Shown piece after piece: positions 7,246 to 34,440 of a stretch of 34,440 nt of DNA (position 1 is the stretch's first letter; the number at the start of each line of letters is the position of its first letter). The position numbers and the translations under genes are program-made. This DNA is from a virus (taxonomy: Duplodnaviria > Heunggongvirae > Uroviricota > Caudoviricetes), in IMG/VR virus record IMGVR_UViG_2531839524_000005. One strand, written 5' to 3'. The notes under the pieces were generated by a model. It saw only the letters and a program-made list of their open reading frames with translations, ran no database searches and was not told where the DNA came from.

Positions 7246-8337
7246 ATGAGCAGACCGGACTGGGGGGCGTTGCAGCAGGAGTATATTGCTGAATACACCC
7301 GCTCCGGTATATCTCCGGTGGCATGGTGTGAAGCAAGGGGACTGAATTACGCAACAGCCCGTCGTTACATCAAAAAACCTCCGAAAAATGCGCAGACAGA
7401 AATGCGCAAAACTGCGCAAAAAAGTGCGCAGAAAAAATCTGCGCAGACTGCGCAAAAGCAGAACGGAAAATCTCAGAAAAAAAAGCCAGTATCCGATGCG
7501 TGCCTGAATAAGGGCGACACGGAGGAATTTTCGTTCTGTCCCGATGAATTCGGCATCTCAGAGCAGCAGACGAAATTTGCGATGCTGGTTGCACAGGGGA
7601 GAAAACTCGTTGAGGCATATCGCCTGGCAGGATACGAGTCAGAGGGGAATGCGGCCTACGTCACTGCCAGCCAGCTCCTAAGAAATCCTAAGGTTTATCG
7701 GGCTATCTCATGGTTCCGCAATCAGTACCAGAAACGCTATACCGCAGACCTAGATTTACTGGTGAGTCAGTTGATGGCCATTGTCCAGGCCGACCCCAAT
7801 CAGTTGGCACAATTTCGCCGTGTTAACTGCCGTTATTGCTGGGGCGAGAATCATCTCTACCAGTGGCGTGATATTGCAGAATTCGATAAGGCAGCAGCAC
7901 AGGCCTCCAGAGATGGCAAACCCGAGCCGGAATATGGAGGCCTCGGCTTTGTTGATAACGCCATACCCAATCCGGATTGTCCGAAGTGCTGCGGTGAGGG
8001 AACGGGACAGCTTTATATGGCTGATACCACTCTGCTTGATGGGGATGCGCGACAATTATATGCAGGGGCAAAGCTCGGGAAATTTGGTGTTGAGATCCTG
8101 CTGGAGGATAAGGCTGCCGCCCGGCGCGAACTTATCAAGCTGATAATGGCGACGAAAGGAGGTTCTGCTAGTGGTGCAACTGACAGTCGCAATGATCTGG
8201 AGCTTGAAGGACTGAGGCTTCGCAACGAAAAGCTGCGCACTGAGATTGAAAACCTCAAAAAAGGCGTGGGTGGTGAGAATAACGAAATAATTATCCACAA
8301 CTCTCTGCCGATGCCGGGAGGGGATAATGTCGATTGA
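7246..8337 (+). CDS. Putative terminase small subunit / DNA-packaging protein
   Basis: 363 aa immediately upstream of, and overlapping, the terminase large subunit. N-terminal HTH-like segment (GISPVAWCEARGLNYATARRYI), basic AQK-repeat region, Cys4 motif (CRYC...CPKCC) and C-terminal coiled coil. Role assigned by position. Confidence 0.45.
   Translation: MSRPDWGALQQEYIAEYTRSGISPVAWCEARGLNYATARRYIKKPPKNAQTEMRKTAQKSAQKKSAQTAQKQNGKSQKKKPVSDACLNKGDTEEFSFCPDEFGISEQQTKFAMLVAQGRKLVEAYRLAGYESEGNAAYVTASQLLRNPKVYRAISWFRNQYQKRYTADLDLLVSQLMAIVQADPNQLAQFRRVNCRYCWGENHLYQWRDIAEFDKAAAQASRDGKPEPEYGGLGFVDNAIPNPDCPKCCGEGTGQLYMADTTLLDGDARQLYAGAKLGKFGVEILLEDKAAARRELIKLIMATKGGSASGATDSRNDLELEGLRLRNEKLRTEIENLKKGVGGENNEIIIHNSLPMPGGDNVD
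7389..7454. repeat. Array of six palindromic TGCGCA hexamers at roughly helical spacing, inside the putative terminase small-subunit gene
   Basis: TGCGCA at 7389, 7403, 7413, 7425, 7440 and 7449, giving spacings of 14, 10, 12, 15 and 9 bp. The same stretch encodes the repetitive peptide TAQKSAQKKSAQTAQKQ. Confidence 0.6.
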
Positions 8338-9655
8338 AATCTACCTCCCAAAACCTCATGAGGGGCAAATAGCTGCATGGACGGCGGCAATAGAGGAACG
8401 CTTCCACGCGGTATGCTGTGGTCGTCGCTGGGGTAAAACGGTGATGCTGGTGAACATCGCTACCAGTTTCGCGACGCGGAAATTTGCCGTTCCTACCACC
8501 GGGCAGCTTATCGCGGGTAGGGTGGGGATTTTTACCGCACAATACCGACAGTACCAGGAAATCTGGGATGAAATTAGCGCCGTTCTGCAACCGCTGATCC
8601 TCAGTCAGTCAAAAAATGAAAAGCGCATCATTCTCCGGAACGGTGGCCGCATCGACTTTTGGGTAACGGACAATAACAAACTGGCCGGGCGTGGGCGTAA
8701 ATATCACGCTGTGCTGATTGATGAGGCCGCATTCACTAAATCGCCGGAAATGCTCGAAGAAATCTGGCCCCGCGCTATACGCCCGACGCTTGTCGATTAC
8801 CGCGGCTGTGCGTGGGTATTTTCCACACCAAACGGTATCGACGAGAGCAATTTTTTCTACGCGATATGCCACGATGAATCCCTGGGATTTGTCATGCACC
8901 ATGCGCCAACTTCATCGAATCCGTATATTCCGAAAGAAGAACTGGAGGAAACGGAGAAGAAATCCGATCCGCGCGTCTGGCAGCAGGAATATCTTGCCGA
9001 GTTCGTGGACTGGTCCAAAGATGCGTTACTCGATGTCGATAAGCTGCTGGTGGACGGTCAGCCGATTGAGATGCCACCGCATTGCGACATGATTTTCGCA
9101 GTGATGGATACGGCGCTGAAAGGCGGGACCGAAAATGATGGTACTGGCATGGTGTATTTCGCTTATGAGTCAACGTATTCGGACGAGCCAAAACTGACGA
9201 TTATTGACTGGGATGTGACGCAAATTAAAGCGTCATTGCTTCCTGAATATATCCCCGGCGTTTATGACAACCTCGAGCGCCTGGCGAAATTATGCCGTCC
9301 GCGTCTGGGCAGTCAGGGAATTTTTATGGAAGACGCTGCGATGGGGGCAATCCTCAACCAGAAGGCGGAAACCGAAGGTTGGGATATGACGCCGATTAAA
9401 TCGGCACTAACCAGCAAAGGCAAAGACGAACGGGCGGTGATGGCATCCAGCTACCACTATCAGGGGATGTGCAAAATCGTCCGGGAGGCTTACGACAAGA
9501 CCGTTTCATTCAAACGCACCACCGCAAACCACCTCATTAAGCAAATAGCCGGGTTCCACCTGGCAGACAAAGACGCACATAAACGTGCTGATGACCTTTT
9601 CGATTGTTACACCTACGGATTGATTATCGCGCACGGTAATTACGCGGAATTGTAA
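8327..9655 (+). CDS. Terminase large subunit
   Basis: 442 aa. Walker A-like motif CCGRRWGKT near the N-terminus, acidic ATPase motif (HAVLIDEAAF) and a C-terminal nuclease-like region with conserved Asp residues (MIFAVMDTA, ADDLFD). Overlaps the upstream gene. Confidence 0.8.
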   Translation: MSIEIYLPKPHEGQIAAWTAAIEERFHAVCCGRRWGKTVMLVNIATSFATRKFAVPTTGQLIAGRVGIFTAQYRQYQEIWDEISAVLQPLILSQSKNEKRIILRNGGRIDFWVTDNNKLAGRGRKYHAVLIDEAAFTKSPEMLEEIWPRAIRPTLVDYRGCAWVFSTPNGIDESNFFYAICHDESLGFVMHHAPTSSNPYIPKEELEETEKKSDPRVWQQEYLAEFVDWSKDALLDVDKLLVDGQPIEMPPHCDMIFAVMDTALKGGTENDGTGMVYFAYESTYSDEPKLTIIDWDVTQIKASLLPEYIPGVYDNLERLAKLCRPRLGSQGIFMEDAAMGAILNQKAETEGWDMTPIKSALTSKGKDERAVMASSYHYQGMCKIVREAYDKTVSFKRTTANHLIKQIAGFHLADKDAHKRADDLFDCYTYGLIIAHGNYAEL

Positions 9656-9673: not shown

Positions 9674-11110
9674 ATGGCTGAGATCGAGATTTCTGTAAAT
9701 CTCAGTTCTTCGCTGATGCGCATTCTTGAGGCTGAAGAAATTCAGCCGGGAACCGACATTGGCTATGAACTGTGTAAACTGCTGTGGCAGTACCACCCGC
9801 TGGGCGGGAAACTTGTCGAAAAACCCATACTGATGGCGATGTGTAAGCCGCGCCAGTACAACGTGGAGACAGACCCTGACGAGCGGGTTGTGCGGCGTTT
9901 TCAGGAGGTATGGGAACGTATGAAGGTTAACGAGAAGATTAAAAATCTTTTTTTTCTGTCTCGTTGCTACGGTGCTGCAGCGATCGGCGTGGGCACCGAC
10001 AGTGTTTCATGTCGTGAACCGCTTCCGACGTTCGGACTGACAGAAGAGGATGTGTATATCAACGCGTGGGATCCGTTGAACGCTTCCGGTTCGATGGTGA
10101 CTGACCAGAATCCAAACAGTCCGTTTTTCCAGGAAGCCAATAAAAAGCTGAAGATTGGCGGAAAAGACTGGCATCCGTCACGCACACTAAAAATCTTCAA
10201 CGGCACACCGATTTATCTGGAGTTTCAGAGTTCATCGTTCGGATTCACCGGGCGAAGCGTATTTCAGCGCGTTCTTTATTCCCTGAAATCCTATATCAAT
10301 ACGATGGAGGCGAATGATCTCGTCAGCCAGAAGGCGGGCGTACTGGTAGCTAAAGTTGTGCAGTATGGCTCCAAACTTGACGGGATAATGGCTGCCGCCA
10401 CGGGACGAAAAAGGGAAAACGTCAAAGAGGCAAAAAATAAAGGGGTGCTTAGTATCGGGAAGGATGAGGATGTTACCTCGCTGAATCTACAAAACATCGA
10501 TGGTGCGCTAAACGCTGCACGCGACAATATTATTTCCGATATTGCGTCAGGGAGTGACGTTCCGGCGATCCTCATTAAAGAGGAAGCCTTTTCGAATGGT
10601 TTCGGTGAGGGGATCGAAGATTCGAAAGCCGTCAGCCAGTATATCGATGGTGTACGCCAGCAGATTGAACCTGTGATGGATTATTTCGAACGCCTGGTGC
10701 AGTACATCGCCTGGAACGAGGAATTTTATCAGTCGCTGAAAAATGATTACCCGGACATCATAACCGACGACTATAAAACCACGTTTTACCAGTGGCGACG
10801 TGAATTTACCGCGACGTGGCAGGAGCTGGTGGAGGAGTCGCCGGACAAACGCCGGGAAAGCGACAGTAAAGTGATTCAACAGGCGATAGCACTTTTCTCT
10901 GCCGTGTCGCCACAGGTTGATCCTGAAAACCGTGCCGCCGTCACTGAATGGCTGGCAAGCCTTGTTAATGCCACGCAAACCTATGGCGAAGCTCCACTCA
11001 TCATTGATGTGGACGCGCTGGCAAATTATGAACCACCGAAGCAGGAGACGCCTGATGGCAATTTCCAGCCGGGCGGGGAGGAGGAAGAGACGGATCAGGA
11101 CGCTGTATGA
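9674..11110 (+). CDS. Portal protein (putative)
   Basis: 478-aa protein directly after the terminase large subunit, with an acidic C-terminus; call by position and size. Confidence 0.55.
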   Translation: MAEIEISVNLSSSLMRILEAEEIQPGTDIGYELCKLLWQYHPLGGKLVEKPILMAMCKPRQYNVETDPDERVVRRFQEVWERMKVNEKIKNLFFLSRCYGAAAIGVGTDSVSCREPLPTFGLTEEDVYINAWDPLNASGSMVTDQNPNSPFFQEANKKLKIGGKDWHPSRTLKIFNGTPIYLEFQSSSFGFTGRSVFQRVLYSLKSYINTMEANDLVSQKAGVLVAKVVQYGSKLDGIMAAATGRKRENVKEAKNKGVLSIGKDEDVTSLNLQNIDGALNAARDNIISDIASGSDVPAILIKEEAFSNGFGEGIEDSKAVSQYIDGVRQQIEPVMDYFERLVQYIAWNEEFYQSLKNDYPDIITDDYKTTFYQWRREFTATWQELVEESPDKRRESDSKVIQQAIALFSAVSPQVDPENRAAVTEWLASLVNATQTYGEAPLIIDVDALANYEPPKQETPDGNFQPGGEEEETDQDAV

Positions 11111-32171: not shown

Positions 32172-32221
32172 GGGGCAAAAATGGGGCAAAACGTTGCAAA
32201 AGGGGCAAAAATGGGGCAAAA
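32172..32221. repeat. Four direct copies of GGGGCAAAA in 11-bp phased pairs
   Basis: Copies at 32172, 32183, 32202 and 32213, with a related ttgcaaaa at 32194; in the noncoding stretch between the last phage gene and the host-like genes. Confidence 0.6.
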
Positions 32222-32514
32222 AAAATGTAGGTTATCGTGATTTATTGTAGTTGTGGATGTGTCTTAACATTCTGAAAAATAAATAAAAATCTTGTGTGTC
32301 AGATAGTTGTAGTTTTTGCCCTTACTTGTTCAGGTTGTATTGTTCTTTCTTACTAATTTCTTGATTTTGCGACATTTAAAAGCGACTCAATTCGTTATAT
32401 GGCATCAGAAGAGTATGCGTCATGCCGGAACGCCCAGCATAAGAAATCTGATATAAAAACTGTGGCGTGTATGGTACGGATTAGAGGGGAAAATGTCAGC
32501 ACATTTGCGAAATG

Positions 32515-33125: not shown

Positions 33126-34097
33126 TTAGAACTGATAAACCAGACCTAAAGCGACAATATCATCGGTAGAGATGCCGTTGGCAGCGTAGAAACTGTCATC
33201 TTCATCCAACAGGTTGATTTTATAGTCAACATAAGTGGACATGTTTTTATTGAAATAGTAAGTCGCGCCAACATCGGCGTATTTAACCAGATCTTTATCA
33301 TCAACACCTGCCGGGTTGTCTGCACCACCGGCAGCGTGCAGGTCACGGCCTTTAGACATCAGGAAAGAGACTGCCGGACGCAGACCAAAATCAAACTGGT
33401 ACTGTGCAGTGACTTCAAAGTTCTGGGTTTTGTTTGCAACAGCATAATCGCTGTCGCCAAACGGGGTCATATTACGCGTTTCTGAATACATGGTTGCCAG
33501 GTAAATATTGTTAGCATCGTATTTTAGCCCAGCAGTCCACGCGTCTGCTTTATCACCACCCGCCGCAGTATGGTTAACCTGGTCATTGGTGCGGTCAGAA
33601 GAGGTGTATGCCGCACCAGCGCTAAAGCCCATGCCTAAATCATATGTTGTGGAAAGACCCCAGCCGTCACCGTTTTCATGGCGAACATCACGTCCGTTGT
33701 TGGTGCCTTCCTGACCATTACTGGCACCTTCGTTGTTACCTTGATACTGCACCGCGAAGTTCAGACCATTTACCAGACCGAAGAAATCAGTATTACGATA
33801 AGTCGCGACGCCATTGGCTCGACCAGTCATAAAGTTGTCTGCATTGGTATAAGAGTCACCGCCAAATTCAGGCAGCATATCGGTCCAGCCTTCGATGTCG
33901 TACATTACGCCATAATTACGTCCGTAATCGAAAGAACCGTAATCTGCAAATTTCAGTCCGGCAAATGCCAGACGGGTCCATGACTGGTTTTTTGAAGATT
34001 CAGTGTTGTTTGCCTGAATATTGTATTCCCATTGACCGTAGCCAGTAAGTTGATCGTTAATTTGGGTTTCGCCTTTAAAACCCAGACGCGCATAGCT
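33126..34097 (-). pseudogene. OmpC/OmpN-family porin gene, 5'-truncated by an IS10 insertion
   Basis: Frame is open from 34097 to the stop at 33126; translation [25 protein letters not shown]...VALGLVYQF matches general porins including the C-terminal signature. About the first 60 codons are missing on this side of the IS. Confidence 0.75.
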
Positions 34098-34440
34098 CTG
34101 ATGAATCCCCTAATGATTTTTATCAAAATCATTAAGTTAAGGTAGATACACATCTTGTCATATGATCAAATGGTTTCGCCAAAAATCAATAATCAGACAA
34201 CAAAATGTGCGAACTCGATATTTTACACGACTCTCTTTACCAATTCTGCCCCGAATTACACTTAAAACGACTCAACAGCTTAACGTTGGCTTGCCACGCC
34301 TTACTTGACTGTAAAACTCTCACTCTTACCGAACTTGGCCGTAACCTGCCAACCAAAGCGAGAACAAAACATAACATCAAACGAATCGACCGATTGTTAG
34401 GTAATCGTCACCTCCACAAAGAGCGACTCGCTGTATACCG
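34098..34440 (+). mobile_element. IS10 (IS4 family), outside end and 5' part, truncated by the window edge
   Basis: Terminal sequence CTGATGAATCCCCTAATGATTTT... and the following ~340 bp match the IS10 outside end as recalled, including the GATC site in the promoter region. A few differences from my recalled IS10-Right suggest an IS10-Left-like copy. Confidence 0.85.
34205..34440 (+). CDS. IS10 transposase, N-terminal part (partial)
   Basis: ATG at 34205; MCELDILHDSLYQFCPELHLKRLNSLTLACHALLDCKTLTLTELGRNLPTKARTKHNIKRIDRLLGNRHLHKERLAVY matches the IS10 transposase N-terminus as recalled. Confidence 0.85.
   Translation, partial: MCELDILHDSLYQFCPELHLKRLNSLTLACHALLDCKTLTLTELGRNLPTKARTKHNIKRIDRLLGNRHLHKERLAVY

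Follow-up and report, generated by a model that had tools for sequence, protein, structure and literature searches.

Six TGCGCA palindromes within the small terminase gene of a Rac-like prophage as the likely recognition element of a headful pac site

The virus record IMGVR_UViG_2531839524_000005 (IMG/VR; Caudoviricetes), analysed here over its full length of 34,440 bp (the window), belongs to the Rac-like group of lambdoid prophages and carries six copies of the palindromic hexamer TGCGCA inside its putative small terminase gene (terS). Which function does such an array of short palindromes serve in the middle of coding DNA? A sequence-only reading of the window had suggested that it could be the packaging recognition site (pac) of the phage. 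Our computational analysis supports this suggestion by the conservation of the hexamers, by codon choice, by the likeness of the locus to the pac site of phage P1 and by a co-variation between the repeated word and a helix of the small terminase protein (TerS). The six TGCGCA hexamers, set in a stretch of about 113 bp with phased A-tracts, are likely in our view to serve this prophage as the recognition element of its headful pac site. We take the array to be the part of pac that is recognised, as distinct from the cut site.

The array spans positions 7389..7454, without strand assignment, and its hexamers start at 7389, 7403, 7413, 7425, 7440 and 7449, which gives start-to-start spacings of 14, 10, 12, 15 and 9 bp (mean 12 bp). 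Six copies in 66 bp at distances of 9-15 bp had been reported in the sequence-only reading, and this was confirmed by the positions, by the count in the whole window, which has only 12 copies of TGCGCA outside the array, and by simulation. No other hexamer of the window is clustered as strongly, with six copies that do not overlap within 66 bp; of 100 first-order Markov simulations, 93 had a largest cluster of 3 copies and 7 one of 4. The spacing had been described as about one helical turn, which holds roughly, as both the mean of 12 bp and the A-tract phase of 11.75 bp (see below) are slightly above one turn. A search for a second TGCGCA cluster in the window found none: the nearest further copy is 785 bp away, and copies with one mismatch are not enriched. 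The extended consensus of the array is aaa-TGCGCA-RA(a). In the 363-amino acid (aa) open reading frame (ORF) 7246..8337 the array corresponds to nucleotides (nt) 144-209 of terS and codes for aa 48-70, the peptide NAQTEMRKTAQKSAQKKSAQTAQ, which is basic, as described earlier, and rich in Lys, Ala and Gln. Five hexamers are read in the frame xxT-GCG-CAR (Ala-Gln), whereas the copy at 7403 is read as ATG-CGC-AAA (Met-Arg-Lys). As this copy is read in another frame, the DNA repeat is not simply a peptide repeat.

The assignment of the gene (7246..8337, + strand) to the small terminases was borne out by profile searches. Its product matched Pfam Terminase_2 (PF03592) with 38.6 bits (cut-off 26.1) over aa 123-311 and phrog_51 with E=2e-69. 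The protein is composed of an N-terminal helix-turn-helix (HTH) domain, a linker and a Terminase_2 core with a four-Cys insert. The extra N-terminal domain (aa 1-45) is encoded by 7246..7380 (+ strand), with the recognition helix ATARRY at 7351-7368. An AlphaFold model of this N-domain has three helices (aa 6-20, 24-31 and 35-41; predicted local distance difference test (pLDDT) 78-88), the second and third of which are predicted to form the HTH, with ATARRY on helix 3. The top neighbours of the model in Foldseek were all HTH DNA-binding domains, none of them significant. Comparison by hhalign of this N-domain, termed type A, with types B and D of related phages (see below) gave a probability of 85% (E=6e-6), and the type B domain matches Pfam HTH_50 (E=7e-6). 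The basic linker that follows (aa 46-100; 7381..7545, + strand) is predicted to be disordered, with an AlphaFold pLDDT of 45-66.

By a tblastn search with aa 1-80, TerS proteins that begin with this N-domain were found in more than 130 Shiga toxin (Stx)-converting phages, as well as in phages of Klebsiella, Yersinia, Aeromonas and Vibrio. The corresponding protein homologue search returned only short proteins, mostly frameshifted fragments, and was used as a shallow alignment, not as a survey of distribution. Aa 6-80 of the window TerS matched phrog_1711 with E=1e-4, and other carriers of the domain did so with 1e-6 to 3e-5. The archetype of phrog_1711 is P1 PacA (E=4e-202), whose N-terminus in turn matches the Stx-type TerS family phrog_370 (E=2e-4). 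When aligned, the window N-domain and PacA have the pattern W..F....G.S...W/Y....LN..TARRY(I/L) in common. The match to the PacA family is limited to the N-terminal ~80 residues, the remainder of the protein being of the Terminase_2/phrog_51 kind. From these matches, homology of the N-domain with the N-terminal part of P1 PacA is probable. P1 pac comprises 161 bp inside pacA with seven TGATCA/G hexamers that contain Dam sites, and synonymous mutation of these hexamers reduces P1 packaging about 9-fold (PMC10028697). In the annotated P1 genome, the hexamers of pacA fall into four TGATCA (nt 194-233) and three TGATCR (nt 324-352); between these groups lie a site for integration host factor (IHF; nt 256-268) and the mapped cleavage (nt 276-285). 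In its position within the gene, the TGCGCA array (nt 144-209 of terS) matches the mapped P1 pac hexamers.

We gathered about 260 related loci (IMG/VR, GTDB genomes, GenBank phages). In these, the word and the recognition helix of the N-domain co-vary, and they do so across different TerS bodies. N-domains of type A (..ATARRYIKK) are found with TGCGCA in Escherichia, Klebsiella, Serratia, Scandinavium, Superficieibacter and Pseudescherichia, and, joined to another TerS body (phrog_370), in Aeromonas phiARM81mr (seven copies) and Vibrio douglas 12A4 (five copies), which makes at least eight genera and two TerS bodies. Type B (..SHTTINNRARKEGW) is accompanied by GTTTCCAC / GTGGAAAC in both orientations in 'Actinobacillus phage pPE4', the IMG/VR contig L084 and Serratia aquatilis. 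Type C (locus L085) has three copies of AAATCGCGAA (word TCGCGA), one of them out of frame, and type D, from Erwinia, has GGGGCAAAA followed by inverted TGCCCC (word GGGGCA/TGCCCC). The helix STAKRYIK of Yersinia vB_YenM_21.09 occurs with four copies of TGCGAAT, and the helix NTARTRIK of 933W-type Stx phages with four copies of GATCAT at an exact spacing of 12 bp, which are the only GATC sites in the gene. TerS genes of Collimonas, Acinetobacter and Psychrobacter have no extra N-domain and no repeated word. The linker peptides change with the DNA word (AQK, KVST/KVET, KIANS, IDHE), and the linker aa sequence is for the most part dictated by the overlapping DNA site.

The same relation was seen in 78 fresh IMG/VR loci with the phrog_370 body, a test that was more blind than the first survey. 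TGCGCA was the most repeated 6-mer (5-8 copies) in 16 of 16 distinct sequences with [ST]ARR[YH] N-domains, and GATCAT was found with 3 of 3 TARTRIK N-domains. The most telling pair is that of the loci L243 and L244, which share 25 of 30 residues in aa 1-30 and 148 of 160 in the last 160 aa, but only 7 of 15 in the segment of the recognition helix, where they mainly differ; between them the array is swapped from GATCAT to TGCGCA. A separate observation concerns the record PP818812.1 ('Actinobacillus phage vB_Apl-pPE4'), which has 92% DNA identity to E. coli prophage terS-terL-portal. Its type B cassette is otherwise present in L084, with identical N-domain and array, and in two loci of Serratia aquatilis (L167, L168), and the host assignment of this record may deserve a check.

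Co-variation shows that domain and word belong together, not what their binding achieves. The N-domain might bind the array for autoregulation of terS and the large terminase gene terL, as an operator or roadblock in the gene, or for some other purpose outside packaging, and a site inside the gene's own coding region would suit such a role. We regard this as unlikely. The same place in the probable homologue, P1 pacA, is an experimentally defined pac, where mutation of the hexamers lowers packaging (PMC10028697); no promoter-like site was found in 6800-8000; and the established role of small terminases is sequence-specific DNA recognition (PMC4737164). Autoregulatory and packaging roles are not mutually exclusive.

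The DNA in which the hexamers are set has features of its own. A region of phased A-tracts of ~113 bp (7372..7484, + strand) surrounds them, with A4-A8 runs at 7372, 7384, 7408, 7418, 7432, 7454, 7467 and 7477. The AA periodicity of 11.75 bp over 7372-7484 ranks 1-4 among 3,432 sliding windows and is the strongest phased A-tract signal of the whole sequence; the AT skew in the array region is 0.55-0.61. This DNA is probably intrinsically curved and wrappable, and 7372-7484 is likely to be the full extent of the recognition site. The phased signal matches the wrapping model for Terminase_2 TerS rings (PMC4737164). The second-strongest phased-A signal of the window belongs to another repeat array, at 32172-32230, with four copies of GGGGCAAAA and a degenerate GTTGCAAAA at ~11-bp phasing. 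It is intergenic, follows a 608-aa ORF and uses the same word as the Erwinia TerS array. The homologous stretch is annotated as an att site in Rac-SA53, and one of the two IHF consensus matches of the window lies at 32354-32366. This array probably represents arm-type binding sites for Int/Xis in attP.

Repeated palindromes may also act by way of nucleic-acid structure, as mRNA hairpins, antisense terminators or cruciforms. Both strands of 7375-7470 fold far better than shuffled sequences (z = -5.2 and -5.3), the minus strand has four terminator-like matches of a hairpin with a T-run, and other words of the survey are self-complementary in potential as well (TCGCGA; GTTTCCAC with GTGGAAAC). 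However, an equal signal on both strands follows automatically from the repetition of a palindrome, and the stems would be only 6 bp long. Copy number (4-8, often odd) and spacing vary by lineage, so no fixed pairing scheme is kept, and the TGCGAAT copies of the Yersinia phage are direct repeats that are not self-complementary. Rfam gave no family match at the array. A structural role would not predict the co-variation with a protein helix, and we hold it to be very unlikely.

Is it the DNA of the array or the peptide encoded by it that is under selection? The encoded peptide is repetitive and rich in Lys, Ala and Gln, and whole units are gained or lost (L033 and L040 are each one 12-bp unit short, L134 has one extra), as might be expected if a basic repetitive linker were selected, or if slippage had made an in-frame minisatellite, with the DNA repeat as a by-product. 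The relatives from E. coli and Shigella have 25 array haplotypes, each with 4-6 intact hexamers, while their spacers vary (gacagaaa, ggcagaag, ggataaat, gaaagaaa) and whole units are now and then gained or lost. An array of 4-8 copies is kept in Escherichia, Klebsiella, Serratia, Scandinavium, Superficieibacter, Pseudescherichia, Aeromonas and Vibrio phage relatives. The sequence-only reading had named the persistence of the hexamers despite synonymous drift in relatives as a check on a pac function, and this is what the alignments revealed: the hexamers stay and the spacers and synonymous sites drift.

Codon usage showed the same. In 66 distinct type-A terS genes, GCG makes up 347 of 398 Ala codons in the linker (87%) vs 450 of 2449 (18%) in the rest of the gene, and Ala-Gln is spelled TGCGCA in 293 of 311 cases in the linker vs 5 of 183 elsewhere. 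As most of these 66 genes are close relatives, the test was repeated on divergent lineages whose terS cores are only 42-57% identical (Superficieibacter, Serratia fonticola, Scandinavium, a Pseudescherichia metagenome-assembled genome and the IMG/VR contigs L131 and L134, to which no host is assigned). Synonymous resampling of the linker peptide yielded on average 0.15-0.85 hexamers vs 4-6 observed, and the observed count was reached in none of 20,000 resamplings for each of seven lineages. Among eight lineages that share the 14/10/12/15/9 geometry, invariant columns amount to 34 of 36 in the hexamers, 9 of 30 in the spacers and 12 of 44 at third codon positions of the N-domain; hexamer columns on third codon positions are invariant throughout (12/12). 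Two reading frames are used by the hexamers in the window and all three across lineages (ACT-GCG-CAA, TTG-CGC-ACT, AAG-TGC-GCA), so that out-of-frame copies give other residues (Met/Val/Leu-Arg and Cys-Ala). The hexamers are under purifying selection at the DNA level, independent of reading frame. Codon choice, resampling, invariant columns and frames together rule out the peptide as the selected feature, and the copies in inverted orientation in type B arrays cannot stem from a peptide repeat; an origin of the array at the peptide level is accordingly an extremely small chance in our estimate. In the Rac-SA53 lineage the N-domain is deleted, with the junction inside the array (the record is annotated as 'fusion of two genes by deletion'), and of the five hexamers that are left three carry mutations, a decay that fits relaxed constraint.

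We give next to no credence to the array as a target for modifying or restricting enzymes (TGCGCA contains GCGC and is a site of the FspI type), which would draw on the gene for a TET-associated glycosyltransferase (TAGT; 6102..7055, E=3e-35) and the ParB_N-domain protein (5339..6130) immediately 5' of terS, as no DNA methyltransferase or TET/JBP dioxygenase was found among those window ORFs that were scanned, TGCGCA arrays occur without that neighbourhood in Klebsiella phage 5 LV-2017, Aeromonas phiARM81mr, Vibrio douglas 12A4 and Stx-like phages, and the localisation of the array and its co-variation with the TerS helix would be left unexplained.

Several points weigh against the array being a pac element. 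In the literature, neither mapped virion ends or pac fragments nor data on binding were found for any phage with a TGCGCA array, and searches for TGCGCA with terminase, PacA with small terminase or HTH, Stx pac sites and end mapping of the named relatives yielded nothing relevant; a paper on Morganella Mecenats66 concerns an unrelated terminase. The profile matches behind the homology to PacA have E-values of 1e-4 to 1e-6 and extend into the low-complexity basic linker, and a pairwise BLASTP of the window N-domain with PacA is weak (E=0.02). P1 PacA shares the helix core (NTARRYL) yet has TGATCA, and a type-D-like N-domain of Pseudescherichia vulneris (L172), with a helix STLRYLAKK that resembles type A, has TGCGCA. 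These two exceptions imply that helix 3 is not the sole determinant of specificity. The words other than that of type A were picked after the sequences had been seen, so their resampling P-values are optimistic. The decay in Rac-SA53 concerns one lineage, and 3 changes over 30 bp come near the background divergence of 7.5%. Finally, P1 pac itself differs: its hexamers are TGATCA/G, here TGCGCA without GATC; it has 4+3 hexamers flanking the cut, here there is one cluster of six; and it has an IHF site, whereas the window array is without a nearby IHF consensus (no match to WATCAANNNNTTR near the array).

For the array as recognition element of pac we propose the following mechanism. TerS would form an oligomer of the Terminase_2 type, each subunit of which carries the extra PacA-related three-helix HTH domain on a flexible basic linker. 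Several of these domains would bind successive hexamers, ~12 bp apart, and the phasing of the A-tracts would let the DNA curve around the TerS assembly. The large terminase (TerL; 8327..9655) would be recruited, a first cut be made close by and headful packaging proceed. The headful mode we infer from P1 and the 933W-type relatives (PMC7317114) and from the Terminase_2/Terminase_6N family assignments. By analogy, the curvature of the phased A-tracts may replace the bending by IHF/HU in P1.

As the site lies in the DNA that codes for the protein's own linker, domain and site are inherited, and exchanged among phages, as one cassette. On balance we slightly favour a wider reading, in which a PacA-like HTH with an array in its own linker forms a portable packaging-specificity cassette on at least three unrelated TerS bodies, with a readable code. 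Under this proposal the cassette would have been received by recombination by P1 PacA, by the 933W-type phrog_370 body and by the Terminase_2-type phrog_51 body. The code would read ARRY for TGCGCA, ARTR for GATCAT and AKRY for TGCGAAT, with other domains for GTGGAAAC, TCGCGA and GGGGCA, and the linker peptide would be essentially a passenger translation of the DNA site.

The array region is also prone to frameshifts. Its A-runs (7372-7484) are frameshift hotspots, and dozens of TerS fragments of 66-88 aa, shifted at different A-runs, were met in the protein search. In addition, CAG-AAA-AAA-AAG holds an in-frame A_AAA_AAG heptamer of the dnaX type (7479-7485), at which a -1 shift would give an 88-aa protein of N-domain and linker. 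The shifts may be programmed, phase-variable or a matter of decay. In the Terminase_2 core, an insert of ~80 aa (TerS aa 195-249) has four or five Cys, with CRYC at 7828-7839 and CPKCC at 7978-7992. It resembles a zinc ribbon and is kept as far as Collimonas and Acinetobacter, where it was located by the patterns NCRYCWGE and NPDCPKCC. An 83-aa ORF immediately 5' of terS (6991..7242) matches the C-terminal part of the 'small terminase' family phrog_309 (E=2.5e-22). It is retained at this place in many relatives with differing array types and absent in others. We considered its product as a binder of the array and rejected it: the ORF does not track the word, adjoining both TGCGCA and GTGGAAAC arrays, and it is missing from three phages, of Klebsiella, Aeromonas and Vibrio, that carry TGCGCA arrays.

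Downstream of terS, terL (8327..9655, + strand) encodes a 442-aa large terminase, the nuclease/ATPase subunit, of Terminase_6N and phrog_2 with a weak match to a solved TerL, followed 3' by the portal gene (9674..11110). A sequence search of the PDB with TerS and TerL gave no useful relatives. The gene content of the window comprises Q, holins, an endolysin, the ParB_N and TAGT genes, terS, terL, portal and an att region; further ORFs are head- and tail-sized, judged by size and not by family match. The ParB_N/TAGT pair directly 5' of the terminase genes may be a DNA-modification module without its usual partners. Two tRNA genes (2312-2462) lie 3' of the Q antiterminator region. Towards the right end of the window there are a truncated porin ORF on the minus strand (33126-33905; Porin_1, profile positions 93-337) and a match to IS10 RNA-OUT (97 bits) at 34143-34212.

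The 5' region of this terS is common: among the 5,426 complete E. coli genomes it was detected in 883, with 100% identity in E. coli 214-4 (NZ_CP025840.1, 4511747-4512061). Stx-converting phages have related cassettes, as do prophages of Klebsiella, Serratia, Yersinia, Aeromonas and Vibrio. If the cassette reading is true, the sequence would allow prediction of pac for a large share of enterobacterial prophages, Stx phages among them, and a swap of ~200 bp could reprogramme the specificity of packaging. One could then predict where headful packaging starts in such prophages and, with it, the generalized or lateral transduction of neighbouring host genes and toxin genes. The element would also offer a compact handle for packageable phagemids or non-packaging helper prophages, for which P1 is a precedent (PMC10028697). 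Pac sites are known experimentally from a handful of phages and the specificity of small terminases is poorly understood; natural pairs with swapped helix and word, together with a pac element that can be read from sequence, make TerS-DNA specificity directly testable.

How does the array compare with known packaging systems? The cosB site of lambda comprises multiple binding sites for the HTH of gpNu1 (16-bp R sites) and an IHF site on bent DNA adjoining the terminase genes. Its place is beyond the coding region of Nu1, and the cutting that it serves is of the cos (cohesive-end) kind. The window array resembles cosB in having several putative sites for a small-subunit HTH on probably bent DNA near the terminase genes; cosB differs by its position outside the gene, its 16-bp sites and IHF. 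Nothing in the window indicates a cos system.

In SPP1 and SF6, the TerS core of G1P belongs to the same Pfam family, Terminase_2, and pac overlaps the 5' part of terS, with direct repeats and bendable DNA rich in A-tracts. The window array likewise falls in the 5' part of its terS and consists of direct repeats in DNA with phased A-tracts. In TerS rings of this family the HTH motifs are about one DNA turn apart, and A/T runs among GC steps in pac favour wrapping; binding of pac DNA by the DNA-binding domain of SF6 TerS was essentially independent of sequence (PMC4737164). G1P differs from the window TerS in being without the extra N-terminal HTH domain, and the repeats of the window differ in being six strictly conserved palindromic hexamers. 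An arrangement of pacL, pacC and pacR with boxA, boxB and boxC is not evident: there is a single repeat family, with no second or third box type in 7000-7800.

The TerS of 933W-type Stx phages has an N-terminal domain of the same family and an array at the same place (terS nt 142-181 vs 144-209 in the window), and some Stx-like variants with an ARRY helix have TGCGCA arrays. These phages have been classed as headful packagers by TerL phylogeny (PMC7317114), and a mapped pac site was not found for them in the literature. They differ in the TerS body (phrog_370) and, in the common variant, by TARTRIK with four GATCAT at 12 bp, which are Dam sites as in P1. In Stx phage vB_EcoS_P32 (L184, 1642-1681, terS nt 142-181; also L243, L254 and L259) the four GATCAT encode IDHEIDHKTDHEIDH, and ~75 bp 3' of the GATCAT words there are one or two TGCGCA/TGTGCA. 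The Stx GATCAT array looks like a Dam-sensitive, possibly bipartite, P1-like pac candidate.

P1 pac is likewise among the closest known systems. Both it and the array described here have repeated palindromic TG..CA hexamers in the small-subunit gene, directly 3' of the DNA coding for the probably homologous N-terminal HTH, at similar density and with spacings of 7-15 bp. The frame usage is also the same, with one copy read as xTG-NNC-Axx (P1: xTG-ATC-Axx) and the others as xxT-GNN-CAx (P1: xxT-GAT-CAx). The PacA body belongs to phrog_1711, whereas the window TerS has the Terminase_2-type phrog_51 body with its four-Cys insert. Neither GATC nor CCWGG occurs in 7300-7600 of the window, and TGCGCA holds no target of Dam or Dcm; without GATC, control of the array by Dam methylation is impossible, unlike in P1. 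With its different hexamer, no Dam control, a single cluster, no IHF site and another TerS body, the proposed site in this prophage is a variant that is probably homologous to P1 pac in its organisation.

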